A stretch of 64,000 bases of DNA from an uncultured Acidobacteriota bacterium (GCA_963813185.1 CAWEYA010000019.1:44561-108560), one strand, 5' to 3'; shown: positions 7,141 through 38,848, counted from the stretch's first letter. A program made the numbers and translations. The notes: generated from the letters alone by a model not told the origin.

Positions 7141-7209
7141 ATCACGAATCACAAATCGCCAGTCACTAGCCGCGAATCACGAATCACAAATCACGAATCA
7201 CCAGTCACC
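7141..7209. repeat. nnnTCAC heptamer array (about 10 units) inside ORF 6656-7795
   Basis: atcacga atcacaa atcgcca gtcacta gccgcga atcacga atcacaa atcacga atcacca gtcaccc; strict period of 7. Confidence 0.85.
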
Positions 7210-7278
7210 CTTCGCAGGAGCTCAGGGCGAGCCAGTCACTAGTCACCCTTCGCAGGAGCTCAGGGCGAGCCAGTCACC
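7201..7278. repeat. Tandem 31/38-bp direct repeat
   Basis: ccagtcac(tagtcac)ccttcgcaggagctcagggcgag occurs twice, followed by ccagtcacc. Confidence 0.85.
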
Positions 7279-7784
7279 GCATTTCGATCCTGCGGCCTAC
7301 GCGGCCTTTGAGCGGGCTACCAACGACGCTGTCGCGCGCGACGTGCGCGGGTCGATCGGCGACACTCTGGCGCGCGTGATGCCCGAAGGAGTGGCGGAGG
7401 GCGCCGCGCGGCGCATCGGCGAAGATATTTTCAACGAAGTGCATCGCGCGCTGGCGGCGGACCGCACGCTCTCCGAGCAGGTCGCCGGCGTGCTGCGCGA
7501 CCGGCGATTTGGCGGCGCGGAACAGCAGCGCGTCGCGGCGCTCCTCGCGGGACGCGCCAAGCAGCTGGTGCCCAGCGTGGCACGGCGCGTCATCGGCGAA
7601 TGGACCAGCACGGTGTTGAACACGGCGCGATCCAAAGCCGCGCGGCAAGCGGCCGCGGCGTCGCGCGTCGATATCGCCGCGCCCGGCGGCTCGCTCGACT
7701 CTATGCCCCTGCGTCAAATGTCGCCGCGCGAAGTGAACTACGCGTCGATGAGCGACGAAGAAATTCTTGGGAATGCGATGATGA

Positions 7785-7916
7785 GTGGCCAGTGACGCAG
7801 TGGCTAGTGGCTAGCTAAGAACCAAACTCAATTACGCCGAGGTTTTCCGGGACCGCAGCGGCAGTGATTCACGGTTCGCAAATCGCTAGCCACTCGCCAC
7901 TAGCCACTAGCCACTC
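7785..7916. repeat. Inverted heptamer-array pair (GTGAnnn 7785-7815, nnnTCAC 7868-7916)
   Basis: gtggccagtgacgcagtggctagtggctagc ... ttcacggttcgcaaatcgctagccactcgccactagccactagccactc. The stop codon at 7793-7795 lies in the first block. Confidence 0.85.
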
Positions 7917-7993
7917 TTCCGACCGATTTCAAGCCATCCTGCACTTCATACCTACTACCTGCATTCATACCCATATAACAACAAGGAGCCATC

Positions 7994-9265
7994 ATGGCAC
8001 AACAAAACAACGCACAAACCGTCGCGTTGCAACTGGAGAAGGTGCGCGACAAAGTGCCCCTGCTCTACGAGCGCGACGATGTTCTGCTCAGCATGATCCA
8101 GCAACGCGGTGACGTCGAAAAAGTCAGCTCGCGCAATATGCGCTTGCCCTTGCAACTCATTCCCGGCGGCAAGGCCGGCAGCTACAGCGCCGACGGCGGC
8201 GACCTGGGACTCGGCTCGGGCAGCACCTACGACGTGGCGCAAGTCTCGCCGATTTTCTTCCGTTTCGCGGTGCAAATCACCAAGCTCGTCGAATACGCCT
8301 CGAACGCGCGCGAGAAGGCCATCGAAAATGCCGTGAAACGCGAAATCGCCAGCGGCATGAAGCAATTCCGCGCCTTCCTTGACAAAGTGATCCAGACCGC
8401 CGGCAACGGCGTGCTGGGCACGATCAGCGCGATCGCCAGCAACACGTTCACCATGGCCGTGCCCACGGGCGCGGCGCTGGTCTACGTGGGGCAGACGATT
8501 CAGATTTACGATCCGACGCTCACGACCAACCGCAACGTCGCGGCCGGCGTGGTCACCAGCGTGACCGCGGCCGATCCGATATCCTCGACGCAAACCATCA
8601 CCGTGGACAATGTGCCTACGGGTACGTCCGTCAACGACGTGATCGTGCACGACGGCCTGACCGGCTCTTCGCCCGTGTCGCTCTTCGGCATCAAGTATCA
8701 TCAGAACAACGCCACCACCGGCACCTGGCTCAACCTCAACCGCGCAACATATCCGCAGCAATTGCAAACGCCGCGCGTCAATGCGGGCAACGCCGCGCTG
8801 GTTCCCGGCCACGCGCGCCTGGCGATCAACAAAGTCCGCAAAGCGCTGGGCATCAACCATCTCGGCAAACTGATCGCCTACACCAGCGTCGAGCAGGAAC
8901 ACGCCTGGGAAAATCTGGGCATCACGGTTTCCCAAATAGTAAAAGAAGGGCCGGGAGGCCGCGCCAGCGACCTGGACATGCTCTTCTCCGGAAAGAAAAC
9001 GATGTCCGGCATTCCGATCAAAAGTTCGGTGAACGCCGATCAGACGCGCGTGGATTTTCTCGACCTGTCGCACTGGGGCCGCGCGGTGATGAAGGACATT
9101 GATTTCTTCGAGGTGGGCGGGCAAACCGTGTTCCCGATTTATGGCGCCAGCGGCGGCATCTCCGCGTCCTTCATCTTCTATTTCGACACCGGATTCCAGG
9201 TGTGGAACGACTCCCCGCGCAGCGGCAGCTTCATCGATTCGCTGGCGCGGCCGAATGGGTACTAG
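7994..9265 (+). CDS. Major capsid protein (HK97-fold inferred)
   Basis: 423-aa intact ORF after the portal and scaffold. AAGGAG 6 nt upstream of the ATG. Size and position are typical; no motif could be verified without a search. Confidence 0.6.
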   Translation: MAQQNNAQTVALQLEKVRDKVPLLYERDDVLLSMIQQRGDVEKVSSRNMRLPLQLIPGGKAGSYSADGGDLGLGSGSTYDVAQVSPIFFRFAVQITKLVEYASNAREKAIENAVKREIASGMKQFRAFLDKVIQTAGNGVLGTISAIASNTFTMAVPTGAALVYVGQTIQIYDPTLTTNRNVAAGVVTSVTAADPISSTQTITVDNVPTGTSVNDVIVHDGLTGSSPVSLFGIKYHQNNATTGTWLNLNRATYPQQLQTPRVNAGNAALVPGHARLAINKVRKALGINHLGKLIAYTSVEQEHAWENLGITVSQIVKEGPGGRASDLDMLFSGKKTMSGIPIKSSVNADQTRVDFLDLSHWGRAVMKDIDFFEVGGQTVFPIYGASGGISASFIFYFDTGFQVWNDSPRSGSFIDSLARPNGY

Positions 9266-9275: not shown

Positions 9276-9333
9276 GTGAATGGTGGCTGGTGATTGGTGA
9301 CTGGTGAAAACCAAGTCGCCGGTCACCAGCCAC
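9276..9333. repeat. Short heptamer-array hairpin after the capsid stop
   Basis: gtgaatggtggctggtgattggtgactggtgaaaacc ... ggtcaccagccac; gtggctggtga pairs with tcaccagccac. Confidence 0.8.
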
Positions 9334-9357
9334 GCTTGTTTCCGGACGCGGCGTACA

Positions 9358-9503
9358 GTAGCACAGACTTCAGTCTGTGGGTTTCCATTTGATCTTGGCT
9401 GGGGGCCCCGTCCAAGCTGCGCGCCGCTTTTCGGTTCACGCAGGTATACGTGGCGCACGCTGGGCGAAATTGACAAAACCCCACAGACTGAAGTCTGTGC
9501 TAC
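9358..9503. repeat. Type-B REPIN-like double hairpin (GTAGCACAGAC)
   Basis: gtagcacagacttcagtctgtgggtt ... aaccccacagactgaagtctgtgctac. The spacer begins ccatttgatcttggct, as in 31412-31531. Confidence 0.9.
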
Positions 9504-9522
9504 CAAAGAACAGGAGAAGAAC

Positions 9523-9909
9523 ATGTCTGTCACACTTACGCTTACCGATATCGATCCGGGCGCGACCCAAATTTATGCCTTTGGCGCGGTGCATCTTTCG
9601 GGGAATTACCCTACGGGCGGCGACACCGTCGACTGGACGCAGCTCCTCGGGCAAATTGCGCTGCGCGGCGAAACCGTCGAATCGAGCATGGCCGATCCCG
9701 CGTACGGGCCGGTCCAGGCGAGCTTCACCGTGCAGGGCGGCACGCCCAATCAATATCAAATGCAGCAGGGCGCCGCGGCCAATAATTGGAAGATGCGCGG
9801 CTTCACCACCGGATCCAGCGGCGCGGAATTCACCGGCGGCTCGGCCTACCCGTCGTCGGCCACGAGCGACATCATCACGTTCTCCGCGCAATTCCGCAAA
9901 TTGACGTGA
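9523..9909 (+). CDS. Hypothetical virion protein (possible head decoration or accessory)
   Basis: ATG at 9523 after caggagaaga. 128 aa starting MSVTLTLTDIDPG. The ORF-track start at 9304 runs through repeats. Confidence 0.55.
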   Translation: MSVTLTLTDIDPGATQIYAFGAVHLSGNYPTGGDTVDWTQLLGQIALRGETVESSMADPAYGPVQASFTVQGGTPNQYQMQQGAAANNWKMRGFTTGSSGAEFTGGSAYPSSATSDIITFSAQFRKLT

Positions 9910-9936
9910 TTCGTGATCGTGAATCGTGGAAAACCA
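9906..9936. repeat. GTGAnnn heptamer array supplying the stop of 9523-9909
   Basis: gtgattcgtgatcgtgaatcgtggaaaacc. Confidence 0.8.
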
Positions 9937-10259: not shown

Positions 10260-10317
10260 TTTAGTTCTCCTTTGCTGCATCCGCAAAACTTCTGTGATCC
10301 ACATTATTCGCGAAACG

Positions 10318-10417
10318 CATGACGCGCCGCCGGACGTGGCGCGCGAGCTCTTGCTTGCCGGCGGGCGCATGAGGCGCCGGCGGATGTGGCGCGCGCGCTT
10401 GAACTCGCGGGAGGGCG
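10318..10417. repeat. Diverged 50-bp tandem duplication
   Basis: The copies 10318-10367 and 10368-10417 match at 39 of 50 positions. They encode HDAPPDVARELLLAGGR and HEAPADVARALELAGGR in different frames. Confidence 0.8.
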
Positions 10418-10895
10418 CAATTTGTTTGGCGAGGCCAATTACCGGGCGGTGTGGGGATGGTCGCGGCTGGATTGGATTGGGGGGAAGTGGGAGGACCGCG
10501 ATCCTGTTTCGGGGGCGCTGGTCCGCGAGGTGGTGGAGCTGCGGCGCGAGCCGAAGTATGCGCCGCACAATCGCTGGCACATCGAGCGGTGGATGCCGGC
10601 GGAGAGCTACGGTTCTCCGGCCGAGTGGCAGACGCGGACGATCGAAATTGTGAATGGGCGGAACGTTCCGGCGCTGGGGCCGTATCCTTCGCGTGGGGAC
10701 TACGAGCACTGCTTCACGCTGGAGGGGCCGCGCGGCGAGTTCGTGCAACTGACGCCGGCGGTGGCGCGGCACATCGCGCGCGCGATTGAAACCAGTCGCG
10801 GCGTTCCCGCTGCGAAGAAAAGGGAAGCGCTCGAGGAGCGCACGCGGCGCGAGGAGCGCGAGTACGATGCGTACGCGGATGCAGTGCTGTCGTGA
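10386..10895 (+). CDS. Hypothetical phage protein
   Basis: 169-aa ORF with a GTG start. A possible older start at GTG 10294 is displaced by the 50-bp duplication. No recognisable family. Confidence 0.5.
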   Translation: MARALELAGGRNLFGEANYRAVWGWSRLDWIGGKWEDRDPVSGALVREVVELRREPKYAPHNRWHIERWMPAESYGSPAEWQTRTIEIVNGRNVPALGPYPSRGDYEHCFTLEGPRGEFVQLTPAVARHIARAIETSRGVPAAKKREALEERTRREEREYDAYADAVLS

Positions 10896-11090
10896 CTAGT
10901 GGCTAGTGACTGGTGACTAGTGGCTAGTGAACTGAGAATCGTGACGGATGACTCGTGAACGAAGGCGTGAGTCCTGATCGGCGATGAGGGATTTGAGATT
11001 TACGAATACCGGAATGTTTGTGCCATTGGCGGAGTCTGGTGATGTGGGTTTTGACCAGTCACCAATCACTAATCACTAGCCACCAGTCAC
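10892..11090. repeat. Inverted heptamer-array pair (GTGAnnn 10892-10970, nnnTCAC 11055-11090)
   Basis: gtgactagtggctagtgactggtgactagtggctagtga... and ccagtcaccaatcactaatcactagccaccagtcac. Confidence 0.9.
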
Positions 11091-11114: not shown

Positions 11115-11765
11115 ATGCAAAGCGAGACCGCGGTTCACGCAGAGCGTTCACCACAAGCGGTAATTGCCAACATCACCGAGCAGCGCTACATGGCGCAGCG
11201 GATGTACGGCACGTTTCAGATTGCTGAGCGCGGCGAAGGGGAATCGTTCGCGCTGACGCGCATCACGCCGCGCACGGCGGTGATGGACTACGGCGACAAG
11301 CGCACGCTGCCGCTGGCCATTACGGCGCGCGAAATCGCCGAGGACCTCTGCCGCGAGATTAATTCCGACGCGGGCGAGCGCAGTTTTCTGGGCGTCTTCG
11401 TGTGCGCGGGCGACTCGCCCACCGAGCAGGAGTTGCGCGCCGCTCAGGAAAAGCTCGACGACTTTTACCGCGCCCTGGTGGCCGCGGCGGATCGCGAGTG
11501 GGAACGCTCGCACTCGTTTCTGTTCATTCACGATTTGCAGCGGCGCGCCGCGGCGCGGCTGGGCCTGGAAAAGGAATGGCATTACCAGGCGCGCGAAACC
11601 GAAGAGTGTCCCGGCTGCGGCGAGCGCGTCAAGCCCGGCGTGGCGGTTTGCAAATCCTGCCACGCGATTCTCAACCGCGACAAGGCGCTGGCCCTCGGAC
11701 TCGTCCAGCCTCCGCCCGAGGGAATGCCACAGAGACACAGAGCCGCAGAGAAGAGCAAAGACTGA
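11115..11765 (+). CDS. Hypothetical phage protein with a C-terminal zinc ribbon
   Basis: 216 aa. AAGGAG upstream. CPGCG...CKSC near the C-terminus. The last residues are encoded by a CACAGAG array (11727-11756). Confidence 0.6.
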   Translation: MQSETAVHAERSPQAVIANITEQRYMAQRMYGTFQIAERGEGESFALTRITPRTAVMDYGDKRTLPLAITAREIAEDLCREINSDAGERSFLGVFVCAGDSPTEQELRAAQEKLDDFYRALVAAADREWERSHSFLFIHDLQRRAAARLGLEKEWHYQARETEECPGCGERVKPGVAVCKSCHAILNRDKALALGLVQPPPEGMPQRHRAAEKSKD

Positions 11766-11771
11766 GAGTGG

Positions 11772-11914
11772 AACCACGGATGCACACGGATTCACACGGA
11801 TAAAAACCGATAAAGCAAATTAGACGGTTTTCAAGAAAACCGGCAAGCTTCTGGTTCTTCCCGCACAGTTTCTTCCCAGTTTTCATCCGTGTTCATCCGT
11901 GTGAATCCGTGGTT
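11772..11914. repeat. Inverted pair of CACGGAT-type short tandem arrays with internal hairpins
   Basis: aaccacggatgcacacggattcacacggat ... atccgtgttcatccgtgtgaatccgtggtt. The centre has aaaaccg...cggtttt and ggtttt-caag-aaaacc. Confidence 0.85.
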
Positions 11915-14900: not shown

Positions 14901-15353
14901 AGCGCCGACAGTTCCGCGTGCGCTTACCAGGGTCCCGCGTCACCGGTCACCGGAACAGGGGCGGCGGCCACCTACTACACGTGCACGCTCCCGGCGGGCG
15001 TGATGGGTGCGGGGCAGGGAATCATCATCACCGTCCTGGCCAAGCACACGACGGGCACTGCCGCCGTTACGTACACGCTTTCGTTTGGCGGCACGTCCAC
15101 CACGGCCGTGGCCCCGTCCGGCGCGGCCAATCAACTCGAGCGCAACACCTACGTCATCATGAACAATCCGGGCTCGACCAGCGCGCAATCCATTTCCACG
15201 TTGGGCCAGGACAGCAATGGCGGAACCAACTCGATCAAGTTGGACACCGCGGCCGTCAGCACCGCGTCCGCGGTGACCATCAACCTGCAGTTCAACGTGG
15301 CGTCCACGGACGCCATTACCCCGGAAATGTTCCTCGTGGAATTGAAGCAGTAG
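11946..15353 (+). CDS. Large fibre/tailspike-like protein with a Sec-type signal peptide and an N-terminal CarboxypepD_reg-like domain
   Basis: 1135 aa. N-terminus LALAVVALLACGANARAQG, then GASVRVC...GNYNFYAAPGRYEIEISGP. The remainder is rich in Gly, Ser and Thr, suggesting a beta-rich fold. Confidence 0.6.
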   Translation: MEMTRLTKHFLALAVVALLACGANARAQGSRKDDIVFNAQGRPMAGASVRVCTSAATGQPCSPLALIYSDAGLTQALANPTSTDGLGNYNFYAAPGRYEIEISGPSITTKQIPNVILPSDPTAPTFTTVTTTSGISAFSLSLSGNLTVNGSAAVTGSLTVGGNPVPSTNQDNQWNGAQRFKGPIPWRDISAYMPPGGCDNSAININQNTSGSISATSTALTLSADLGFKNGCGIFVQAAGATSTLAAPTVGTPAPIVYGGTGSTTVHYKVAAIDPHLGTSAASSAITVTTAPATRTPLDMVAIYWAYDAGAVGYLIWSDATGSYTPLGYSFQCSQFSSGGVCGYIDKGAETFNFSKSSMFPFFPYTPPASATADALVTTIVSGAGTLSLVLANAATNSSGANAYVYPDARPFFDSALAAAAADGTSLNRSQVFIPEGLWYLSGIDFPASPAGVSIVQSGAIQLFGLPIFGTVGGGSAGSGGVSWFGNGGAYTSGFWTLSTASIFAQTQVGAIFVAYGSPNNMDLERLTLSSSEDVIVEDSLGALTMRDDEVIENQGSGVGLRIDANTYFSQFYHVDWNSSNNSNTLIPLVWYTGLTSSLQSAVFGFHDNAFRYHTIRDDDIFGGNAFGTIAIDGTTSIESNWDQGLITAVAGGPGSVSISGQASDNDPNIPDQSLQYDYGPTGTLPGTTWNVTANLTGFVHYVWGAQFVGNATRCIGWTFNNASTLLNGQWGSVDGTTYAGCDLGATSLGYDVQTSGILTSGGNDPAVAALEPMLGHVFRRPVPSVTGTGSGSLSAGTYYFVATVLDAAGREGGASQEISQTVGATSSINLSVAEAIYFPTSCNIYYGTTPGGEAHFFNSTAVTNGTCTFTFTSASGTAGTPPVVGNAMRSWLNQENNGNSCLFCGLGGGLGTGFLGFNLTASQYSALPAGVQFPFNGGVHSYKFYSASETTAPAGVANVDQLYADSTAHRWKKIENNGAAQTVGSADSSACAYQGPASPVTGTGAAATYYTCTLPAGVMGAGQGIIITVLAKHTTGTAAVTYTLSFGGTSTTAVAPSGAANQLERNTYVIMNNPGSTSAQSISTLGQDSNGGTNSIKLDTAAVSTASAVTINLQFNVASTDAITPEMFLVELKQ

Positions 15354-15455
15354 TAGCACAGCCACTCCTGGCTGTGCGGTTTTGCATGCTGAACACGCAG
15401 GCTGCGAATCCAGCGACAATCGCAAAAACCGCATAGGCAAGAGTGCCTGTGCTAC
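15353..15455. repeat. Type-B REPIN-like double hairpin (GTAGCACAGCC)
   Basis: gtagcacagccactcctggctgtgcggtttt ... aaaaaccgcataggcaagagtgcctgtgctac. It overlaps the last base of stop codon 15351-15353. Confidence 0.9.
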
Positions 15456-15495
15456 TGAGACCTTTCAACTAATCCGCACGAAAAGGACTCCACAT

Positions 15496-15900
15496 ATGCG
15501 CAAATTTCAAAATCACCGCTGGCGAGCTTCGCGCGCCCTGCTGCTTGCCTTCGCCTTGTTCGCGGCCGCAACCGCCGGCGCGCAAGGCGTTCCCCCAGGC
15601 ACCGCTCACAGCGTCACACTCACTTGGACGGCGCCATCGCCCGTGGGAGGTTCGGGAACGATCAGCGGCTACAACGTGTACCGCTCGCCGGCGAGCGCGG
15701 CAGCCTACACGAAGCTGGACACGGCCCTCACCGCCGGGCTGACCTACACGGACACCGCTGTGTCCGCGGGCGCCAGCTACAGTTATTGCGTGACCACTAT
15801 GGACTCGCTGAATGAAGAATCGGCATGTTCCGCGCCGGCCACCGCCAATGTGCCCTCAAACCCAAACGCCCCGAGCGCTCCCCTCATCACCGTAAAGTGA
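15496..15900 (+). CDS. Secreted fibronectin type III domain protein
   Basis: Signal peptide ALLLAFALFAAATAGAQG. SVTLTWTAP...GYNVYRS...YTDTAV...YSYCVTT is an FN3 pattern. Confidence 0.7.
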   Translation: MRKFQNHRWRASRALLLAFALFAAATAGAQGVPPGTAHSVTLTWTAPSPVGGSGTISGYNVYRSPASAAAYTKLDTALTAGLTYTDTAVSAGASYSYCVTTMDSLNEESACSAPATANVPSNPNAPSAPLITVK

Positions 15901-16187
15901 GGCGTGACCGGAGGGCGTGAGTTGTGATTCGTGATTTGTGAATGCCAAGCCTACGCGACGGCGGAGAGTGACTGGAGGCTGGTGACTAGTGGCTAGTGAC
16001 GAGTGACTAGTGGCTAGTGAAACGATTTCTCCATAACGCTGCGTGAATGGATTGAACAGGTCTTTCCGCATGAATTCATCTCAAATTTGAATTTCAAATC
16101 ACGGTTTAGAGGCTGCGAGCGTTACTCAAACCTTTCTGCTCGCGAACGGTTCTCACGAATTGCGAATCGCCATTCACGAATCACGCG
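15897..16187. repeat. Inverted heptamer-array pair (GTGAnnn blocks 15897-15943 and 15968-16020; nnnTCAC blocks 16081-16103 and 16151-16187)
   Basis: gtgaggcgtgaccggagggcgtgagttgtgattcgtgatttgtgaa; gtgactggaggctggtgactagtggctagtgacgagtgactagtggctagtga; tctcacgaattgcgaatcgccattcacgaatcacgcg. Confidence 0.85.
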
Positions 16188-16234: not shown

Positions 16235-16326
16235 GGGACAGATTTCAGTCTGTAGGGTTCCGTCGATGCTTCGAGGCGCAGGCTTGCATAAGCAATGGAA
16301 ATCCACAGACTGAAGTCTGTGCCACT
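16235..16326. repeat. Type-B REPIN-like unit with a degenerate left arm, flanked by a 19-bp direct repeat
   Basis: gggacagatttcagtctgtagggtt ... atccacagactgaagtctgtgccact. gtgagcgcctggacaaatt occurs at 16205-16223 and 16337-16355. Confidence 0.75.
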
Positions 16327-16336: not shown

Positions 16337-16573
16337 GTGAGCGCCTGGACAAATTTTCAAGTGTGGTGGCGCGGCCTGGTGGCCGCCGCGATTGCCGGGG
16401 GCGCCAACGGCGTTATCACCGGCTTCGCCGCCGTGGGCATCGACCCGCAAACTTTCAACCTGCAGGCCGGCCTGCACTCCACGCTGGCCATCGCCGGGGT
16501 GAGCGCGCTGATGTCCGGCATCATCGGCGTGGCCGCGTATTTGAAGCAGTCGCCGCTGCCTGCTGGAACGTGA
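16337..16573 (+). CDS. Small membrane protein (two hydrophobic helices; holin-like or virion-associated)
   Basis: GTG 16337 gives (M)SAWTNFQVWWRGLVAAAIAGGANGVITGF... The alternative ATG at 16295 lies inside the repeat. Confidence 0.5.
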   Translation: MSAWTNFQVWWRGLVAAAIAGGANGVITGFAAVGIDPQTFNLQAGLHSTLAIAGVSALMSGIIGVAAYLKQSPLPAGT

Positions 16574-16799
16574 TTCGTGAATCGTGATTCGTGAAGGCGG
16601 AAAATATCTGTGGTCGATTTTCGCCGGTCTACACATTCATCGCGAAACAGAAGTGGCTTCGAGTCAAGTGGTGTAAGCCCCAGTCTGTGGGTGTGTGACC
16701 TTGCAGAGACTGAAACGTACAGGCTGAAGCCTGCGCCAATCAAGCCGCGAATTCAGCGGCTCATTCCACGAATTACGATTCACGAATCACAAATTACGA
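16570..16799. repeat. Inverted heptamer-array pair (GTGAnnn 16570-16594, nnnTCAC 16764-16799) enclosing a REP-like unit
   Basis: gtgattcgtgaatcgtgattcgtga ... ttccacgaattacgattcacgaatcacaaattacg. Confidence 0.85.
16667..16739. repeat. Degenerate short REP-like double hairpin
   Basis: agtggtgtaagccccagtctgtgggt ... acgtacaggctgaagcctgcgccaat. Confidence 0.5.
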
Positions 16800-17534: not shown

Positions 17535-17683
17535 ACCAAATTTGAACCATGAACTCGGTCCAGGGTTTGCGGCATCTCATAGATAAGCTGGAGGTTATTT
17601 GGCGGGTACATAAGGAAAAAATAATAACTGGGGCAGCTCTTGTGTTCATTTATACTAAACATTATTCCGCACGGAGCCAGACA

Positions 17684-17944
17684 ATGCCCGATTTAGACAA
17701 GGATATCAGCGCTTACGAAGCACGGCGTCAAGAGCTCGAAACCCGGCATATGGGTAAATGGGTTGTCTTTTATGGCGCTGAAATGGTGAGTTTGTATGAC
17801 TCCTTTGAAATGGCTGCTGAGGATGCAGTACGCCGATTCGGGCGTGGCCCTTACCTTATCCGGCAAGTAGGTGCCCCTCCGATTACGTTGCCAGCTTCCG
17901 TGATGTATTCACCTACGCATGCCACAAACAAAGTGCGGTTTTGA
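17684..17944 (+). CDS. Small hypothetical protein in a low-GC island, partner of the protease gene
   Basis: ATG at 17684 with GGAG upstream. 86 aa, MPDLDKDISAYEARRQELETRHMGKWVVFYGAEMV... It overlaps the start of the next gene. Confidence 0.55.
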   Translation: MPDLDKDISAYEARRQELETRHMGKWVVFYGAEMVSLYDSFEMAAEDAVRRFGRGPYLIRQVGAPPITLPASVMYSPTHATNKVRF

Positions 17945-18365
17945 CAATACGCCGGGAGCCTCCGGGAGCGATCTTTTAGTAGCGTGGGGGCCCACTTTGA
18001 TTGTCAACGTGGGGTTTGACCCCAATTTCAAGGGTCCTCCTGGGATACCTGTTTCCGGGATAACTGATATACACGCTTTGGTGGACACAGGCGCGACCGA
18101 GTGTGGCATGACAGCCTACTTGCGTCTCAGTTGGGGCTTCCACAGTTGATAGACACTCAATACTGGCGTGCAAGGACCAAATGCAAAGTGCATTTGGCGC
18201 AGGGTTTGTGCCTCCCTGAATTTTACAATGTACGGTGCCTTTGCTGCTGTTGACCTAGCAGCTGGGGGACAAGCGCATCAAGTACTCATGGGTAGAACGT
18301 TTCTTCGTGCCTTTAAGATGACCTATGAAGGTCTTACCGGAACAGTTACAATTTCCTCGCCTTAG
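17919..18365 (+). pseudogene. Retropepsin-like (clan AA) aspartic protease with two frame switches
   Basis: ALVDTGAT catalytic motif. IDSLLASQLGLPQLIDTQ continues in another frame around 18100-18170. The C-terminal VLMGRTFLRAFKMTYEGLTGTVTI returns to the first frame. Confidence 0.6.
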
Positions 18366-18430
18366 ACTCCTAACTCTGAGCTGCTAACTGTCAAGTTCTC
18401 CTCGGCACTTGTCACAAGTTGCCAGCCATC

Positions 18431-18462
18431 CATCGCTAATCACGATTCACGAATCACAAATT
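18431..18462. repeat. nnnTCAC heptamer array ending 5 nt before start codon 18468
   Basis: catcgctaatcacgattcacgaatcacaaatt. Confidence 0.8.
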
Positions 18463-18467: not shown

Positions 18468-21155
18468 ATGAGCATCGCTGGAACCATCGACGCGCCGCTG
18501 GACTTGTTCGGCGGGCTCGTCACCGACATGGCTGCGGCCGATCTGCCGCAAGGGGTGTCGCCCGATTGCCGCGACGTCGCGTTTGTGCAGGGCGCGGTGA
18601 AAACGCGGCCCGGGCTTTTGTCGATCTATTCTCCGATCGCGGGGAATCCCACCGTCAACTATCTGAAAACTTTCACGCAGCCGAATCTGGCGAAGACGCT
18701 GCTGGCGATTGACTCGGCGGGAAAGCTGTGGGGCGAGAATTCTCCCGGCGTGTTGACGCAGATCGCCGCGGGGCTTACTGCGAATGCGGCGGCGAGTTCC
18801 ACATCGCTCTTCAGCCGCGAATATATCGCGCAGCACGACGGCAACTTCGGCGTGGACATGCCGCGCCAGTACGACGGCGCCAATCTGGATCGCGTGAGCC
18901 AGATCGGGCCGGGCGCGGGACCGGCCATGGTCGCGGACGTTATCGCCAATATTTCCGCGATTTCGCGCAGCTCGAATGTGGTCACCGTGACCACGGCAAC
19001 AGCGACGGGAATGCTCCCGACCGATCAGGTGGTCATCGCGGGCGTCACCGACACGACTTACAACGGAACTTTTCCGATCGCCTCGATCATCGATTCGCTG
19101 CATTTCACCTACGCGCAGACGGCGGCCAATTCGTCCTCGAGCGGCGGCACCGCCGCGCCGGTCGGCTCGATCAGCGCGGGCGTGCACCAGTGCGCGGTGA
19201 TTTTCGTGACGCGGCAGGGCTACTTGACGCGGCCTTCGCCGCCAACCAGTTGGACGGCGGCCGGCGGCCGCCGCGCGAACGTGACCGGCATTCCCTCGGT
19301 CGGCACGCTGCCGAATGTCGTCGCGCGCATTCTTGCTTTTACCGGCGCGGGCGGCGATTTGTTTTTCTATACGACGGGGCTGGACGGCGCGCCGCAGATG
19401 CAGGTGTTCGACAACAGCGCCTCGTCGTTTATCGTGGATTTTTCGGACACGGCGCTGCTCGCGGGCATCGAAGCGGATTCGTTGTTCAATCTCGTGGAGC
19501 TCGGCGAATGCGCCGGCGTGATCGGCTATTCGCAGCGCCTGTTCTGGTGGGGCGAACGCAACAAGCAAAATAATTGGGAGAACCTCACGTTTGACGGCGG
19601 ATTCGGCGTCGGCGGAAACAACGTGCCGCTCGGCTGGACTCCCGACGCGACGTTTTTTGCCGGCGGCAGCTTTGACACCACCGGCGAAGCGGTTTGGGGC
19701 GGCGACTACGCCATCCTCGGCGACGGCGCCACCGCGACGCGCGGGCTCATGACGCAAACCGCCGTCGCCGATTACAACGGCGTGCCGCGCCTGCAAGCGA
19801 ATACGGGCTACTCGGCGCGCGTGCGCGTGCGCATGACCGGCGTGCTGACGCAAGGCACTCTCCACGTGCACATTTACAGCGCGTCGCTGGGAATTTCAAC
19901 CCCCGGCATTTCCGTTCCTGCCGCGCAAATCACCACCAGCGCGTGGAAAGAATTCATCGCGCCGATCACTCCGGCGCTGGGCTTCGCCACGATTCCGTCC
20001 GATTTGCTGCTGCGCATCTATGCCGACGGCACGCCCACGGCGGGCGCGGGATTCCTGGTCGACAACATCGAAATTTTTCCCACCGCACAGCCGTACAACA
20101 CTTCGCTCGTGCGCGCGTCGTTCGCCGAGGATCCTGAAAGCTACGACGGCGTCAGCGGATTCATGAACGTGTCTGAAAACGACGGACAGACCGTGCGCGC
20201 CGCGTTTTTGCTGCGCGAGCGACTTTACTTCGTGAAGGACCGCTCGATCCACGTCACCGAGGACGACGGTGTGAACGAGCCCGCCTCCTGGGCAATCAAC
20301 GAAGTGTCGCGCGCCGTCGGCACGCCCTCGGTCGCCGGCGTGGATGTGGGCGAGGACTGGGCCGTAATCGCCGGCCGCGCCGGCATGTACATTTTCGACG
20401 GCGGCGAGCCCATAAAAATTTCGCAGGAAATTCAACCGCTGTGGGACAGCATCAATTGGGCCGCCGGGCAAACACTGTGGGTGCGCGTGGACACGCGCAA
20501 CAAGCGCATCCTGTGCGGCGTGCCCACGGGCGCGGCTACCTCACCGAATCTGATTTTAGTTTTGGATTATCGCAGCCTCTCCAGCGCCGGCGAAATCGAA
20601 TCGCTCGGCTCGGTCCTCTTTTCCACATTGTCGGGAAAACTCTACGCGGTAGGCCGCTCGCGCAAGTGGTGCCCGTGGACCATCGCCGCGAATTCGTGCA
20701 CGCTCGCCGAACGCTCCGACGGCACCGCGCAAGTATTTCTAGGCAACGGCGCAGGCAACGGGAAAATCTACCAGCTTTCCGACACGCAATTTTCCGACGA
20801 CGGCGCGGCCATCAATTCCTACTACACGACGTACTTTTTCCTGAGCCACGACCTCGAGCAGACCTACCAAGTCCGCGCGCACCGAAAACTTTTCGCCTAC
20901 CTCACGATGTACGCCGAAGGAGCAGGAAACTTGAACCTCTCCGCCTTCGTCGACAACGAAGCTTATCCCACAGCGCTGACGCCGCTGCCGCTGTCCTCGC
21001 CCGGCCCAAAAGATCTCGAGTTTCCAATCAATTTGCTAGGCGAACGCGTCGCTTTCCAGGTCGGCACAAACACCCCAGGCGCGTGGTTCAAGCTCGAGCG
21101 TTTCATCCCGTCACTCTTGCCGGATCCCTGGGCGCCTGTAAGAGGAGGGAATTAG
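18468..21155 (+). CDS. Large virion protein, possibly nozzle or tail-tubular-B-like
   Basis: 895-aa intact ORF. The N-terminal LFGGLVTDMAAADLPQGVSPDCRDVAF..KTRPGL resembles, from memory, the N-terminus of T7 gp12-type proteins. Not verified. Confidence 0.4.
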   Translation: MSIAGTIDAPLDLFGGLVTDMAAADLPQGVSPDCRDVAFVQGAVKTRPGLLSIYSPIAGNPTVNYLKTFTQPNLAKTLLAIDSAGKLWGENSPGVLTQIAAGLTANAAASSTSLFSREYIAQHDGNFGVDMPRQYDGANLDRVSQIGPGAGPAMVADVIANISAISRSSNVVTVTTATATGMLPTDQVVIAGVTDTTYNGTFPIASIIDSLHFTYAQTAANSSSSGGTAAPVGSISAGVHQCAVIFVTRQGYLTRPSPPTSWTAAGGRRANVTGIPSVGTLPNVVARILAFTGAGGDLFFYTTGLDGAPQMQVFDNSASSFIVDFSDTALLAGIEADSLFNLVELGECAGVIGYSQRLFWWGERNKQNNWENLTFDGGFGVGGNNVPLGWTPDATFFAGGSFDTTGEAVWGGDYAILGDGATATRGLMTQTAVADYNGVPRLQANTGYSARVRVRMTGVLTQGTLHVHIYSASLGISTPGISVPAAQITTSAWKEFIAPITPALGFATIPSDLLLRIYADGTPTAGAGFLVDNIEIFPTAQPYNTSLVRASFAEDPESYDGVSGFMNVSENDGQTVRAAFLLRERLYFVKDRSIHVTEDDGVNEPASWAINEVSRAVGTPSVAGVDVGEDWAVIAGRAGMYIFDGGEPIKISQEIQPLWDSINWAAGQTLWVRVDTRNKRILCGVPTGAATSPNLILVLDYRSLSSAGEIESLGSVLFSTLSGKLYAVGRSRKWCPWTIAANSCTLAERSDGTAQVFLGNGAGNGKIYQLSDTQFSDDGAAINSYYTTYFFLSHDLEQTYQVRAHRKLFAYLTMYAEGAGNLNLSAFVDNEAYPTALTPLPLSSPGPKDLEFPINLLGERVAFQVGTNTPGAWFKLERFIPSLLPDPWAPVRGGN

Positions 21156-22464: not shown

Positions 22465-22562
22465 AGTGGCACACACTTCAGCCTGTGTGCTTTTCCGTGA
22501 GACCTTGAGAATACGCCGCCTGAAAAAAATGCAAACCCGCACAGGCTGAAGCGTGTGCCACT
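22465..22562. repeat. Type-B REPIN-like double hairpin (GTGGCACAC)
   Basis: agtggcacacacttcagcctgtgtgctttt ... aaacccgcacaggctgaagcgtgtgccact. Confidence 0.85.
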
Positions 22563-33328: not shown

Positions 33329-33347
33329 TTCTCCTCCGAATAGGGCA

Positions 33348-33467
33348 GTGACTAGTGGCTAGTGAATGGTGACTAGTGGAAAACCCGTAGCAATCTGGGA
33401 GCTTGCCGTCGCCGGCGGTGTTCACTAGCCACTAGTCACTAATCACTAGTCACCGGTCACCAGTCAC
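33348..33467. repeat. Inverted heptamer-array pair between two minus-strand core genes
   Basis: gtgactagtggctagtgaatggtgactagtggaaaaccc ... ttcactagccactagtcactaatcactagtcaccggtcaccagtcac. The MFS stop (TGA, 33464-33466) lies in the array. Confidence 0.9.
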
Positions 33468-34780
33468 AATTCCTCGTCCTTCGTCTCGCGCGCGGCAAGC
33501 AGGCCGACGAATGTCAAGGCCGCTGCGCCGGTGAGGTAGTAGCCGACGTATTGTAGGCCGTAAGTCTTGGCCAGCCACGTGGCGATGTACGGCGCGAGCG
33601 AAGCGCCGAAAATACCGGCGAAGGTGAACGTCAGCGAACTGCCGGTGTAACGCACCGAAGTCGGAAAAAGTTCGGACAGCACCGTGCCAAGCGGGCCGTA
33701 GGTCAGGCCCATCAGGGAAAGGCCCACTGTCATCATCAGCACGGCTCCCGTCGTCCCGGCGAGAAACATGGGCGCCATGATCAGTCCGAATGCGCCGATG
33801 GCCGCGGTCACCCAGAGGAGCGTGCTGCGGCGTCCGCGTTCGGCGAGGATCGCGCCGATGGGAATAAAAACCGCGAAAAACACGATGGCGAAGAGCTGCA
33901 TCACCAGAAACTTCTGGCGGCTGTAGCCAAGCGCAGTGGTGCCCCAGGACAATGCGAAGACCGTCATCAAATAAAAAATCACGAACGTTGCGAGCGCCAC
34001 GAGCGTGCCCACCACCACTGTTCTGGGGTGTTCGCGAAACACGGTCAGCATGGGCACCTTCACGCGCTCCCTGCGGCTGAGGGCGTCGCGGAACACGGGC
34101 GTCTCGGTGATCGTCAACCGCACGTAGAGGCCGACGAGCACCAGCGCGGCGCTGGCCAGAAACGGAATGCGCCAACCGAAGGCGAAGAATTGCTGGTCGG
34201 TAAGCCATCTGGAGAGCGCCAGAAATATTCCGCCGGAAAAAAGGAATCCGGCAGGCGCGCCGAGCTGCGGAAACATGCCGTACCAGGCGCGCTTTCCCGG
34301 CGGCGCGTTCTCAATCGCCAGTAGTACCGCGCCTCCCCACTCGCCGCCGAGGCCCAGCCCCTGCCCAAAACGAAACAGCGCAAGCAGCGTCGGCGCTGCC
34401 ACACCGATCGTGCCGTAAGTTGGCAGAGCGCCAATTGCAACTGTGGAGAGCCCCATGGTGAGGAGCGCGGCTACAAGTGTCGCCTTGCGTCCAACACGAT
34501 CGCCGAAATGGCCGAACAGCGCCGAGCCGACAGGCCGCGCAAAAAACGCAATTGCAAAAGTCGCGAGCGAAGCGAGCGTCGCGGAGGCCGGGTCGGTCGA
34601 CGGGAAAAACAATTTGGGGAATACAAGAACCGCGGCGGTCGCAAAAATGTAAAAGTCGAAGAACTCGATCGTCGTTCCGATCAGGCTCGCAAACAGCACC
34701 TGCGCAGGCTTGTTGATACCCACGCCCGCGCGGGGGTCCTCCTGGCTGACCGCAACACCGTTGTCGGGGGTTTCATTCAA
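33464..34780 (-). CDS. MFS transporter, metabolite:H+ symporter type
   Basis: TIEFFDFYIF and GALFGHFGDRVGRK motifs, about 12 transmembrane helices. The start is uncertain (TTG 34780 or GTG 34723). The ORF-track N-terminal extension to 34999 looks non-coding. Confidence 0.8.
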   Translation of the reverse strand: MNETPDNGVAVSQEDPRAGVGINKPAQVLFASLIGTTIEFFDFYIFATAAVLVFPKLFFPSTDPASATLASLATFAIAFFARPVGSALFGHFGDRVGRKATLVAALLTMGLSTVAIGALPTYGTIGVAAPTLLALFRFGQGLGLGGEWGGAVLLAIENAPPGKRAWYGMFPQLGAPAGFLFSGGIFLALSRWLTDQQFFAFGWRIPFLASAALVLVGLYVRLTITETPVFRDALSRRERVKVPMLTVFREHPRTVVVGTLVALATFVIFYLMTVFALSWGTTALGYSRQKFLVMQLFAIVFFAVFIPIGAILAERGRRSTLLWVTAAIGAFGLIMAPMFLAGTTGAVLMMTVGLSLMGLTYGPLGTVLSELFPTSVRYTGSSLTFTFAGIFGASLAPYIATWLAKTYGLQYVGYYLTGAAALTFVGLLAARETKDEEL

Positions 34781-35759: not shown

Positions 35760-37923
35760 ATGCCACTTTCCACAGGCGAAAAGCTCGGCCCTTACGAAAT
35801 CGTCGCGCCCATAGGCGCCGGCGGCATGGGGGAAGTGTATCGCGCGCAAGACCCGCGTCTGAATCGCGACGTGGCGATCAAAGTTTCCGCCGCGCAGTTC
35901 ACCGAGCGGTTCGAGCGGGAAGCCAAGGCAATCGCGGCGCTGAATCATCCCAACATCTGCCAGATTTACGACGTCGGTCCGAATTATCTGGTCATGGAGT
36001 ATATCGAGGGCACTCCGCTCCACGGCCCTTTACCGCTCGATCGGACGCTGCGCTATGCCGCGCAGATTTGCGATGCGCTCGACGCCGCGCACAAGAAGAG
36101 CATCACGCACCGCGATCTGAAGCCCGCCAACATTCTGGTGACCGCATCCGGCGTGAAGTTGCTGGATTTCGGGCTGGCGAAGATAGGAACCGCCAGCGCT
36201 CCGCATGAGTTCCGATGACGCCACGCAATCGATGGACCTACGGAAGCGGGCACGGTCCTGGGCACCGCCGCCTACATGTCGCCTGAACAGGCCAAAGGCG
36301 AGCAGCGGACGCGCGCTCGGACATCTTCTCCTTCGGCGTGGTGCTGTATGAAATGCTGAGTGGCCGCCGGGCGTTCTGCGAGGAACTCCGCCATCGAAAC
36401 CATGGCCGCAATCCTGCGCGAGGAGCCCGCGCCGCTGGATGCGCCGCCGAACCTCTCCGCAATCGTTACGCGCTGCCTGCGCAAGTCACCCGCCAGCCGG
36501 TTCCAGACGATGGGCGAAGTTCGCGCGGCGCTCGAACAAGCTACCGCGACGGCCGCATCGACCAAGGCTCCCTCCATCGCCGTCCTGCCCTTCGCCAACA
36601 TGAGCGCGGACAAAGAGAACGAATACTTCAGCGACGGCCTGGCCGAAGAGATCCTCAACTTGCTCGCCAAGATTCCGGGTCTGAAGGTGATTGCGCGCAC
36701 GTCCTCTTTCGCGTTCCGCGGCAAGGAGCAGGACATCACCAAGATCGCCGAGACGCTGCGCGTGCGGACGATCCTCGAAGGCAGCGTGCGCCGAGCCGGC
36801 AACCGCATCCGCGTCACCGCGCAGCTGATCGATGCCGACGACGGATCGCATCTCTGGTCGGAGCGCTACGACCGCGACATGACTGACGTTTTCGCCATTC
36901 AGGATGAAATCGGCCGAGGCGATCTCGGAAGCGCTCAAAGTGCGGCTCGCTCCTCGCGCGCAGGCGGTGAATATCGAAGCCTACCAGAATTACTTGAAAG
37001 GACAGTATCACCGCGTGCGGCTCACGCCGGAGAGCCTGGCGAAAGCGAAAGAGTGCTTTGACCAGGCCTTGGCCATCGACCCGAATTACGCTCCGGCTTA
37101 TAGCGGACTGGCGGTGTACTACTACATGCTGGCGGTGTTCGGCATAAAACCGGCTAGCGACATGGCGCCTTTGGCGAAATCGGCTGCGGAGAAAGCGCTG
37201 GCCATCGATCCTGCCAATAGCGACGCGCACAGCGTGTTGGCGAGTCATGGCGGCAGTCTTCGATTATGACTGGAAAGTGGCCGAAGAGCATTTCCGACAA
37301 GGCCATGGCGGCTGAACCCGTCCCGCCCATGGTGCGATACCGCTACGCCATGTATTATCTGCTCCCGTTGGGACGAGTTCGCTGAAGCGATGGAACAATG
37401 CCGGTTGGCGCTCGAGACCGATCCACTTTCCATGCTTCTTCACTGGGGCATGGCTTGTTCCATGCTACTGCGGCGAAACAGTACCGGGAAGCAATTGAGT
37501 ACGCGCGCAAAGCCCTGGAAATCGATCCGAACTTCTACATGATCTGGTTTGTGATGGGGTTCGCCCAGCTTCAGCGCCGGCCTCCCACAGGAAGCGATTA
37601 CCAGCTTGAAACGGGCTGTGGAGTTGGCGCCCTGGTGGCACCATAGGTGCGTGGTCACTGGCCGCAGCCTACTATCAGGCTGGCGATCGCGAGCGCAGCC
37701 AGGAATGGGCACGGAAGCTCGCCGACTCGCACGGTCACAACTATCGGGGCGGCGTTGTATTACGCCGCCACCGGAGAAGTGGATGCGATGTTCGAAGCGC
37801 TCGAAGGGGCCTACCGGCAGCGCGATTATTACATTATCGAAATTCAATACCTGCCGTTCTTCGACCCTTACCGCGCCGACCCGCGCTTCCAAGCCCTGCT
37901 CACAGAGAATGAACCTGGCGTAG
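35760..37923 (+). pseudogene. Ser/Thr protein kinase with TolB-like and TPR C-terminal regions, many frame switches
   Basis: GAGGMGEVY, HRDLKPAN, DFGLAK in ORF 35625-36218. TEAGTVLGTAAYMSPEQ, DARSDIFSFGVVLYEML, ETMAAILREEP, SIAVLPFANMS and the TPR segments each continue in shifted frames. The natural stop is probably 37921-37923. Confidence 0.8.
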
Positions 37924-38190
37924 ACGTTGGCGAGAGACTTGATTGCCTTGTGGGAATTCACGAGCGGGCCCCGACTAGGTCGGCCTCCTCGACTTCAGCC
38001 TTTCTGATTTTCGTGTGGATCTAACGAGAACCAAAAGTAGACAGGCTTGAAGCCTACCCCCCCTCAGATCGCGTGGTGTGTGCTTTGATCGCTTGGAAAC
38101 TGATTTGCGGCCTCTCGACCAGTGGCATTGACAACTTGAATCGGGTCAGCAAGAATATGTTTTAGTAACCCATATTTTTGGAGGCTCGAC

Positions 38191-38568
38191 GTGGCGTATT
38201 CGGCTCCTAGCATCGAGGAATTTCAGGCGGGAACGGTCGTCAAGTACTCGCCCATATCCACAGGCACGACGACCCAGAGGAAGCGCAAACCCCACATTCT
38301 TGCGGTAATCAATGAATGCTGTACGGGATGCGCCGGCTCGCCTGCCTGCGTCGAGTACTGCCCCGTGGCGGATTGCATGTACTGGGCGCCGGATGAGGAC
38401 CACGCCCCCTTTGGCCGCATCATCGTCGATCCCCTGCTCTGCATCGGCTGCAAGCTGTGCACCAGCAAAGGCCCCGACGGCGCGTTCCTTGAAGGCTGCC
38501 CGTGGGACGCGATTGACATGGTTCCCCTCGCCGAGTTTGAAGGTGCGAACGGCGCAATGCCGTTTTGA
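38191..38568 (+). CDS. 4Fe-4S dicluster ferredoxin-domain protein
   Basis: CTGCAGSPACVEYCP and CIGCKLC...GCP cysteine motifs. Confidence 0.8.
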   Translation: MAYSAPSIEEFQAGTVVKYSPISTGTTTQRKRKPHILAVINECCTGCAGSPACVEYCPVADCMYWAPDEDHAPFGRIIVDPLLCIGCKLCTSKGPDGAFLEGCPWDAIDMVPLAEFEGANGAMPF

Positions 38569-38574
38569 GAAGGC

Positions 38575-38848
38575 GTGACTGGTGACTGGTGATTAGTGAC
38601 CGGTGATTCCCCGGCCCGAGGTCGCCACGGGGAGGGACACGTGATTCGTGATTTGTGATTCGTAATTCGTGAACCCCGAAGAAGTGGCGTTCCGTTGCTC
38701 TCTCGACCTTTGCCCTCGACAGGTTCTGCGTGAAGCTCGCGCGCCCTAAAGATTGGAATTGTGCAGCTGTGGGCCGGTTTTTCACCAGTCACTGGTCACC
38801 AATCACTTTCCTGGTTTCACGAATCGCAAATCACGATTCACGAATCAC
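38575..38848. repeat. Inverted heptamer-array pair between convergent genes (38575-38608 and 38641-38673 versus 38777-38848)
   Basis: gtgactggtgactggtgattagtgaccggtgatt; gtgattcgtgatttgtgattcgtaattcgtgaa; ttcaccagtcactggtcaccaatcac...ttcacgaatcgcaaatcacgattcacgaatcac. Confidence 0.9.

Follow-up and report, generated by a model that had tools for sequence, protein, structure and literature searches.

Here, we describe a family of tandem heptamer repeats with the unit GTGRnnn in a stretch of 64,000 nucleotides (the window; G+C content about 60%) from an uncultured Acidobacteriota bacterium (GCA_963813185.1 CAWEYA010000019.1:44561-108560). The repeats are very probably slippage-driven, hairpin-forming heptamer arrays akin to the short tandemly repeated repetitive (STRR) sequences of cyanobacteria. 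Every array has its GTGA 5′ end tied to the edge of a gene, either at a stop codon (sense) or about 10-45 nt before a start codon (antisense), and the arrays fill the same intergenic niche as the GTAG-type palindromes of the repetitive extragenic palindromic (REP) and REPIN type. Based on this layout, which a transcript-level role would fit best, we propose tentatively that STRR-like GTGR arrays build REP-like hairpins that punctuate transcripts, a reading as a whole to which we give a probability of roughly 0.45.

A regular expression for at least three consecutive GTG[AG]NNN units, or for the complement, returned 20 arrays, compared with a mean of 0.02 in 50 dinucleotide-preserving shuffles; within the window they are confined to 7.1-38.9 kb. 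The same loci were reported independently by Tandem Repeats Finder as arrays of period 7 or 14. Read locus by locus, the window contains 24 GTGR-type arrays (Table 1; 25244-25378 excluded), mainly intergenic; 7139-7277 lies within a gene, and a few others overlap only the final codons of an abutting gene. An earlier reading of this DNA from its letters alone (the sequence-only reading) had listed 13 loci in prophage and core genes alike. This distribution holds, and 12 of the loci are indeed GTGR/YCAC arrays, whereas 25244-25378 consists mostly of AAATTTC and TCCAACT heptamers. The array listed at 7141-7209 is also real, but it spans 7139-7277 and is carried in-frame inside gene 6656-7795 rather than between genes.

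With a period of strictly 7, the units combine a conserved GTGR/YCAC core with variable positions 5-7. Two flavours of unit predominate, GTGRCTR (GTGACTA, GTGGCTA, GTGACTG) and GTGAWTY (GTGATTC, GTGAATC, GTGATTT), while further heptamers (TTCAAAT/ATTTGAA, AAATTTC, TCCAACT) occur within cores or beside GTGR arrays at 23187-23209, 25313-25376 and 16080-16100. The commonest layout is a GTGA-sense run (F), an unrelated core of 3-170 nt and a TCAC-sense run (R). The gene-side unit matches the consensus as well as the middle units do; the inner, core-side unit is nearly always an A-rich variant (GTGAAAA, GTGGAAA or GTGAAAC in the window), and most window arrays close on the core side with a GTGRAAN-type unit. 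Indeed, the inner-end motif pointed out by the sequence-only reading recurs: GTGRAAAMC is found 7 times in the window against 1.9 expected, with 5 of the 7 at inner array ends. The last unit is A-rich in other phyla as well, carrying A at position 5 in 27% of cases versus 4% for middle units.

How strict is the orientation of these arrays relative to genes? Since the F..R layout is its own reverse complement, a rule that places GTGA-sense arrays behind stops and TCAC-sense arrays before starts is automatic for pairs on both strands. What the rule asserts beyond this is the order F..R instead of R..F within pairs, together with a fixed direction of solo arrays. We counted polarity in about 2.7 Mb of fetched loci, comprising 120 viral contigs (retrieved with the generic pattern (GTGANNN)x5), 119 bacterial genome stretches and 72 phage loci (reached via the capsid protein), taking adjacent arrays at most 250 bp apart as pairs. 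The ratio of F..R to R..F was 5:0 in the window, 30:0 in the viral contigs, 32:1 in the bacterial stretches and 11:0 in the phage loci, in total 78:1. Solo arrays (loci of at most 58% G+C, open reading frames (ORFs) of at least 150 aa) had a same-strand gene end at their GTGA 5′ end 43 times, with the opposite arrangement seen 3 times. Hence the uniform orientation that had been claimed is upheld, even though it follows by itself for pairs. Where the stop is independent of the array and lies 0-15 nt upstream, the G-rich sense orientation prevails by 49:7. For other period-7 flavours behind stops, the G-rich strand is sense in 20:3, the stop-richer strand only in 10:5. From the GTGA 5′ end, the median distance is 5-6 nt to a stop or 29-44 nt to a start, and from the opposite end it is 110-255 nt to the next gene.

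The contact with the stop is often not only close but in phase. The TGA of the first unit is itself the stop of the upstream gene at seven loci (9907, 10893, 15898, 16571 and 24555, and 33464 and 38845 on the minus strand), the stop falls in the second unit at 7793, and at 23104 it is the TAG formed at the second CTA|G junction, between units 2 and 3. In the high-G+C paired set, the adjacent ORF stops at +4, +11 or +18 (TGA) or at +8 or +15 (TAG) in 43 of 70 cases; in these the array supplies the stop, most often through its first unit. Across 70 elements, the median stop offset is +4. As 7 is not a multiple of 3, GTGA-sense arrays are able to close every frame: all three frames are closed in 213 of 260 GTGA-sense arrays versus 90 of 260 TCAC-sense ones. 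The MFS transporter gene illustrates the phasing, as most of its orthologs end ...TTG TGA (L316 ends TTG TAA); this includes the array-less ortholog L315, so the array stands in phase with a native GTGA of the gene.

These contacts bear out most of what the sequence-only reading had said about gene ends. GTGA arrays do start at or just after stops. The minus-strand pair at 33348-33467 obeys the same rule, with a GTGA-sense arm that donates the MFS stop and a TCAC-sense arm by the amidase start, and the convergent genes near 38.6-38.8 kb each have a GTGA array of their own, one 7 nt behind the stop at 38566-38568 and one that contains the stop at 38845-38847. The distance of 5-80 nt given for TCAC arrays ahead of starts held in part: R runs end 8-25 nt upstream of the next start at six loci, but 80-190 nt from it at three, and REP-like elements intervene between 9333 and 9523 and between 16185 and 16295.

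Is the GTGR heptamer a peculiarity of this host and its phages? The exact 18-mer GTGACTAGTGGCTAGTGA was found in at least 119 stretches of a one-genome-per-species collection, with all matches listed lying inside arrays; by our own arithmetic, about 17 matches would be expected by chance for a random 18-mer. Judged by record titles, the carriers include Firmicutes-type bacteria (Dialister, several Clostridia and Eubacteriales, Peptococcaceae), Acidobacteriota (Bryobacterales, Acidiferrales, Terriglobia), Gamma- and Alphaproteobacteria, Cyanobacteria (Chamaesiphon, Chroococcidiopsis, Gloeocapsopsis), Gemmatimonadaceae, Planctomycetes, Chloroflexi, Bacteroidota, Armatimonadota, Elusimicrobia, Kiritimatiellae, Opitutales and three lineages of the candidate phyla radiation. 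The survey of further genomes thus places GTGR units, as far as titles and matches tell, in at least 15 phylum-level groups. The matches include isolates and closed long-read chromosomes, which rules out an assembly artefact as the source of the arrays. Other genomes carry many arrays per 8-kb locus, and other GTGAnnn flavours are found in them and in phages, with many flavours coexisting in one genome.

In Dialister (L142, L152, L168, L188), GTGACTR units are mixed with GGGATTA, GTCAGAT/AGTCTGA and CCCTGAA arrays in the same spacers. Here, a dispersed element bearing the terminal inverted repeats AAGTTTGAAA surrounds the GTGACTR arrays; it begins AAGTTTGAAAGCAGGGAT, resumes behind the arrays with AAATACCGCCTTCGGGCATCGCCACTATTTATACTCCGCGGCGC and in some copies ends in an inverted repeat ...TTTCAAACTT. 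This element may be a MITE (miniature inverted-repeat transposable element) carrying a minisatellite.

In the window, the predicted structures of array pairs are long, imperfect stems (-44 to -109 kcal/mol), and three of the pairs fold at z = -5.2, -8.9 and -5.2. For 33346-33469 only 3.5% of the ensemble falls to the minimum-energy structure, and in the centroid the arms are unpaired. Such a spread across structures indicates slipping between registers, in line with the slipping stems envisaged from the sequence. Sense and antisense folding energies were mixed. Between cistrons, the predicted stems of 25-45 bp contain the double-stranded RNA of about 20 bp or more that is looked for in an RNase III site, and they would be compatible with RNase III processing or mRNA stabilisation. 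The RNase III sites of phage T7 are likewise long stems between the cistrons of the late operon; they consist of unique sequences with a defined internal loop, unlike the tandem repeats seen here.

A second line of evidence comes from the spacer behind the phage capsid gene. The sequence just 3′ of the capsid stop cannot be aligned even between phages that are about 90% identical in the gene. We folded this spacer in 62 distinct loci from the 72 related IMG/VR loci with the capsid-like protein. The 160 nt after the stop gave a median z of -4.46, with 89% below -2, compared with a median of -0.07 and 16% below -2 for a coding control of 160 nt within the capsid gene. The stems are built variously from GTGR heptamers, GTAG-headed REPIN-like palindromes, 9-mers GTAAAGGAG, 8-10-mers and ATTTGAA heptamers, and other heptamer flavours follow the capsid gene in L244. 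Because the structured spacers are made of different repeat families, it is the structure and not the sequence that is conserved, the GTGR array being one route by which to build it.

The GTAG-headed palindromes (consensus about GTAGCACAGNCTTCAGNCTGTGNGGTTTT, in inverted pairs; Table 1) are the second abundant intergenic family in the host and its phages, a separate family that shares spacers with the heptamer hairpins. Inverted arrays of 8-10-nt units also occur in the window, at 6199-6226 / 6277-6312 and 11772-11914 (also 11728-11751), with units CACAGAGGAG versus CTCTGTGGCC and CACGGATGCA versus TTCATCCGTG, in an arm-core-arm arrangement like that of the heptamer pairs; related phages use the 9-mers GTAAAGGAG in the same way.

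The chromosomal orthologous loci L312, L313, L315, L316, L319 and L320, which we fetched through the MFS homologs, illustrate how the arrays change. In L312 (95% protein identity) the core of the MFS/amidase element is recognisably conserved, with arms of 5 + 6 units versus 7 + 5 in the window. Two units remain in L313, where a GTAG-type palindrome pair has been added; L319 and L320 retain three beside a different repeat hairpin, and L315 has no array at this locus. In the ferredoxin/HEAT spacer, L320 carries 13 perfect CAGTCAC units versus 3 in the window. Comparison of these orthologous loci shows replication slippage of unit number, as in variable-number tandem repeats, together with vertical persistence and occasional loss.

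As the likeliest mode of action we propose that the element serves the mRNA as a stem-loop that cannot be translated. Its 5′ arm, G-rich and C-poor, would present TGA or TAG in all frames, so that ribosomes would halt at the foot of the stem in any frame and with any number of units, and it would offer Rho no C-rich single strand for loading. The C-rich 3′ arm would pair back once synthesised. The resulting stem could then punctuate a polycistronic mRNA, either by protecting 3′ ends or by serving as a double-strand processing site, and it could juxtapose the stop of one gene and the start of the next, permitting re-initiation. A TCAC-first polarity, which is almost never observed, would lose these properties.

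Several observations weigh against this proposal, each functional step of which we infer. Mismatches of the G·T type and of the A·C type between arms are balanced on the transcribed strand (43 vs 47, 31 vs 25 and 31 vs 31), i.e. there is no RNA-specific excess of G·U, and unit order shows no more mirroring between the arms than permuted order does (2.911 vs 2.894 matches per unit). The complementarity of about 82% between arms thus stems from the shared consensus and not from compensatory change, and nothing here shows selection for pairing beyond that consensus. Many arrays are solo and unable to build a long stem. In the convergent spacer 38575-38848 the arms follow the order CTG-type, ATTC-type, CTG-type, ATTC-type (A B .. 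A′ B′) and are not nested, so the like-with-like pairings cannot both form one simple hairpin; the ortholog L320 (1567-1952) keeps this order. The long two-array stems have no T-tail and do not coincide with any terminator-like site. About one third of the units are GTGG, without TGA, and G at position 4 shows only a modest association with a junction stop. Finally, the recurrence of identical units in many phyla is unexplained by a purely structural role.

Canonical intrinsic termination, one of the roles suggested by the sequence-only reading, is not supported: besides the missing T-tails, terminator-like sites in the window are not enriched (28 vs 20.9 ± 4.8), and the two low-ranked 5-bp minus-strand matches (7170-7158 and 9330-9318) each lie within a single array. 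Promoters are not enriched in cores or arms. The stop codon as the sole selected feature was rejected on the modest link between G at position 4 and the junction stop, and because G-rich sense is a stronger rule than stop-rich sense. Mimicry of a Shine-Dalgarno sequence was rejected as a general explanation too: GGTGA(T/C) complements the 16S rRNA 3′ end, but A predominates at position 7 and the flavours of other genomes mostly do not resemble a Shine-Dalgarno sequence. For matS (GTGACRNYGTCAC) and the DnaA box, a check by eye found the spacing unsuitable.

Could the arrays be neutral or selfish microsatellites instead, which arise by slippage in dispensable spacers, with the hairpin a by-product of the shared consensus? 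In such a scenario the polarity would be a survival filter that removes orientations creating false starts, C-terminal extensions or Rho loading sites near genes. Heptanucleotides are the commonest long simple-sequence repeats in bacteria, and polymerase slippage has been proposed as their origin (Mrazek 2007, as summarised in PMC4679880). In a phage sample unselected for arrays, 157 of 252 tandem arrays had period 7, 72 of the 157 with a GTGR core, and such dominance is what a mutational preference, as summarised in PMC4679880, predicts. The Mrazek survey, in that summary, deals with near-perfect repeats and gives no architecture, whereas GTGR arrays have degenerate units around a fixed core, form inverted pairs and are oriented to gene ends. 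The variation in unit number between orthologs, including the perfect 13-unit run, the arms without covariation or a G·U signature, the loss or replacement of arrays in close relatives and the lack of a dedicated gene nearby all speak for neutrality. We nevertheless hold this main rival to be rather unlikely as a full account, as the filter leaves unexplained the rarity of TCAC-sense arrays just behind stops (3/46 and 7/56), the flush, in-phase stop contact, the special A-rich inner unit, the retention of a structured spacer by packaging-limited phages in 89% of relatives, and the identical units in at least 15 phylum-level groups.

We regard it as improbable that the arrays are sequence-specific protein sites that mark or insulate gene boundaries with one protein per 7 nt, although protein-binding arrays of this kind are possible by analogy. 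The candidates would be a ribbon-helix-helix (RHH) protein on duplex DNA, such as omega/ParB of pSM19035, or an oligonucleotide/oligosaccharide-binding (OB)-fold or cold-shock-domain protein on single strands. The parS site of pSM19035 consists of 7-10 contiguous 7-bp WATCACW heptads, each bound by one RHH omega (ParB) dimer, with at least 4 heptads required (PMC9499535). GTGR arrays are of similar size, comparable to this minimum, and share the TCAC core; the GAATCAC flavour reads AATCACA or AATCACG, a match or near-match to WATCACW, but the commoner CAGTCAC and TAGCCAC do not fit. CspB, for its part, binds heptamer repeats with one protein per heptamer (PMC4679880). The strict period of 7, with a constant GTGR/YCAC core and variable positions 5-7, is in keeping with such a protein, and identical units in many phyla would suit a shared or horizontally moving factor. 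Against this, the parS heptads lie contiguously in mixed orientation without a spacer at the three promoters of plasmid par genes, with omega/delta adjacent, and none of these features is found for GTGR arrays, where long direct runs abut the stops of unrelated genes. Furthermore, none of ten small ORFs in the window has an RHH or omega-like domain, the only neighbours recurring among the 119 matched loci are of housekeeping type (ABC ATPase, ECF sigma factor, LysRS, HisRS), one array is translated, and many unit flavours occur within one genome. In its boldest form, a pan-bacterial and sequence-specific gene-boundary signal that is read one heptad per subunit and insulates the transcription or translation of each gene from its neighbours in bacteria of many phyla and in their phages, this explanation also has long odds against it. 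Candidates for the reader, a conserved or horizontally spreading factor, would be a cold-shock/OB-fold protein, an RHH-type protein or the 16S rRNA 3′ end with its GAUCACC, and recognition of the arrays would fix the 7-nt period, the polarity and the special inner unit.

No transposase, including the REP-associated tyrosine transposase (RAYT), is among the recurrent neighbours of the 119 loci, and no RAYT is among the scanned window ORFs, whole genomes not having been searched. The least likely explanation, and a very unlikely one, is a mobile REP- or MITE-like element that would have the arrays for its terminal inverted repeats and a transposase acting in trans, such as RAYT, for its mover: the fixed F..R polarity and sharp outer ends do resemble element termini, the niche is shared with GTAG-type REPIN palindromes, the Dialister arrays lie within a dispersed element and presence varies between relatives, but the cores, unlike those of a MITE, are unrelated from locus to locus within a genome and conserved between orthologs alone, arms differ in length by entire units, many arrays are solo and a target-site duplication is not definable.

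Classic STRR units read CCCCAGT, TTGGTCA or CAACAGT. STRR sequences are 7-bp tandem repeats of filamentous cyanobacteria with hairpins between genes, e.g. hupS and hupL, for which roles in transcript stability or translational coupling have been proposed (PMC2670836). Transcript punctuation by GTGR stems would agree with these unproven proposals (PMC2670836). GTGR arrays resemble STRR in their head-to-tail 7-nt units in at least three copies and in being dispersed, mainly intergenic, inverted and hairpin-forming. They differ in the GTGRnnn unit and in their hosts, i.e. Acidobacteriota, their phages and many phyla, some cyanobacteria among them, and we found no report of strict F..R polarity, flush stop contact or stop donation for STRR. 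The view that no named family applies was therefore correct in part. In the literature searched we found no description of a GTGR family, of 78:1 polarity, of stop-codon donation, of an inner terminal unit or of such breadth across phyla, and none of six exact array 14-mers occurs in the 8 million literature texts searched; these features we take as new, but the class is known as STRR or heptanucleotide repeats.

The TAACTGA direct repeats of Beggiatoaceae, cyanobacteria and Bacteroidetes (MacGregor 2015) are comparable as intergenic heptamers with a patchy distribution over phyla, a fixed gene orientation, stop codons within the unit and no known mechanism. They stand forward just upstream of starts and are almost never inverted, whereas GTGR arrays stand in sense behind stops or in antisense before starts, usually as inverted pairs. 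With REP/REPIN elements the GTGR arrays share the extragenic position, often in inverted pairs after gene ends, the proposed mRNA-stabilising or terminating roles and the same phage spacers. A REP, however, has a RAYT and a fixed palindromic sequence, 20-40 bp long and headed by GTAG or CGTC, in contrast to GTGR arms of variable length that start with GTGA and have no associated gene.

Cyanobacterial heptamer repeats have been known for decades, and the reason for seven bases and the role are still unexplained. The GTGR family provides directly testable rules, namely a fixed core, 78:1 polarity, contact with or donation of the stop, the inner unit and interchangeability with REP at one phage position, and its carriers include the cultivable Dialister and Chroococcidiopsis. 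Should the arrays punctuate transcripts, bacteria would have in them a widespread and evolvable alternative to REP elements and classical terminators, and gene calling would be affected by stops inside repeats and by repeat-coded linkers in proteins. If a factor reads them, they would be a new gene-boundary system.

Table 1. Repeat arrays of the window, with their relation to neighbouring genes (positions in nt from the first letter of the window)
Position	Strand	Feature	Gene context
7139-7277	-	TCAC-sense array, 10 + 3 units split by two 24-nt mini elements CCTTCGCAGGAGCTCAGGGCGAGC	In-frame, variable linker of phage gene 6656-7795
7785-7813	+	Short GTGR array	Holds TGA stop (7793-7795) of gene 6656-7795
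7887-7914	-	TCAC-sense array, 4 units (TAGCCAC type)	80 nt ahead of capsid-like start 7994
9276-9310	+	GTGA-sense arm, 5 units; inner unit GTGAAAA	10 nt past capsid stop
9313-9333	-	TCAC-sense arm, 3 degenerate units; pairs with 9276-9310 (-43.7 kcal/mol, z -8.9)	
9906-9932	+	GTGA-sense array (GTGATTC type); inner GTGGAAA	First unit is stop 9907-9909
10892-10933	+	GTGA-sense arm, 6 units	First unit is stop 10893-10895
11056-11090	-	TCAC-sense arm, 5 units	End 25 nt from start 11115, ribosome-binding site AAGGAG between
15897-15944	+	GTGA-sense array, degenerate then GTGATTC type	First unit is stop 15898-15900
15968-16023	+	Second GTGA-sense array (GTGACTA/GTGGCTA type); inner unit GTGAAAC	
16151-16185	-	TCAC-sense arm (GAATCAC type, degenerate), facing 15897-16023	
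16570-16597	+	GTGA-sense arm, 4 units	First unit is stop 16571-16573
16765-16799	-	TCAC-sense arm	End 10 nt from start 16809
18437-18457	-	Solo TCAC-sense array, 3 units	End 11 nt from start 18468
23092-23133	+	GTGA-sense arm, 6 units	Junction TAG 23104-23106 is stop of gene 22555-23106
23210-23272	-	TCAC-sense arm, 3 + 5 units	End 18 nt from start 23290
24554-24588	+	GTGA-sense arm, 5 units; inner GTGAAAA	First unit is stop 24555-24557
24641-24668	-	TCAC-sense arm, 4 units	End 8 nt from start 24676 of SLT (lytic transglycosylase) domain gene
25244-25378	.	Other-flavour heptamers (AAATTTC, TCCAACT), scattered TCAC units; outside GTGR family proper	
33348-33382	+	Arm, TCAC-sense on transcribed minus strand	Beside amidase start (33328, minus strand)
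33419-33467	-	7-unit arm, GTGA-sense on minus strand	First unit is MFS transporter stop 33464-33466
38575-38609	+	GTGA-sense array (GTGACTG type)	7 nt past stop 38566-38568 of ferredoxin-like gene
38641-38675	+	Second GTGA-sense array (GTGATTC type)	
38779-38806	-	TCAC-sense array, 3 CAGTCAC units + inner TTTTCAC	
38814-38848	-	TCAC-sense array (GAATCAC type)	Outer unit is stop 38845-38847 of minus-strand HEAT-repeat gene
1825-1912, 2514-2600, 9356-9505, 15352-15456, 16300-16325, 39776-39852, 40302-40402, 54883-54968		GTAG-headed REP/REPIN-like palindromes	

The first 26 kb of the window are prophage-like, with weak PHROG matches to a major head protein (7994-9265) and to virion structural proteins (18468-21155) and with an SLT lysozyme-like domain, and the remainder is chromosomal, with an amidase, an MFS transporter, a multihaem cytochrome c and DnaE. 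Homologs of the MFS transporter reach 83-96% identity, one of them labelled Candidatus Acidiferrales by NCBI, and an Acidobacteriota metagenome-assembled genome shares 81% DNA identity across 2.2 kb; on these matches, the host is an acidobacterium close to Candidatus Acidiferrales. An exact-sequence look-up of the window amidase gave no match, Rfam at its gathering threshold returned no family in the window, and neither tRNA nor tmRNA genes were found there.

Gene 6656-7795, which carries the array 7139-7277, is a conserved phage gene with full-length homologs in related phages. The array is translated in a hypervariable linker (...ESRITNRQSLAANHESQITNHQSP...VTSH...) of this conserved protein, which is probably scaffold-like, and the repeat-coded peptide ITNHQSPVTSHQSP also occurs in relatives of the product, with differing copy number. 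The sole intragenic array is thus TCAC-sense, which suggests that heptamer arrays create disordered protein segments only in the stop-free orientation. The 24-nt mini element CCTTCGCAGGAGCTCAGGGCGAGC and its variants are found in the window (7209-7232, 7247-7270), in L260 (about 7370-7400) and, mirrored in both arms, in L320 (1567-1952). CAGTCAC units flank it in every instance, and it resembles a small dispersed repeat that resides in heptamer arrays.

Between gene 17549-17944 and the solo TCAC array at 18437, about 490 nt (17945-18436) have no assigned ORF and a G+C content below that of their neighbours. A repeat at 10316-10419, close to where ORF 10386-10895 begins, comprises 2.1 copies of a 50-bp unit (79% matches), reading CGCATGA(C/G)GCGCCGCCGGA(C/T)GTGGCGCGCG..., and may represent a duplicated gene start.

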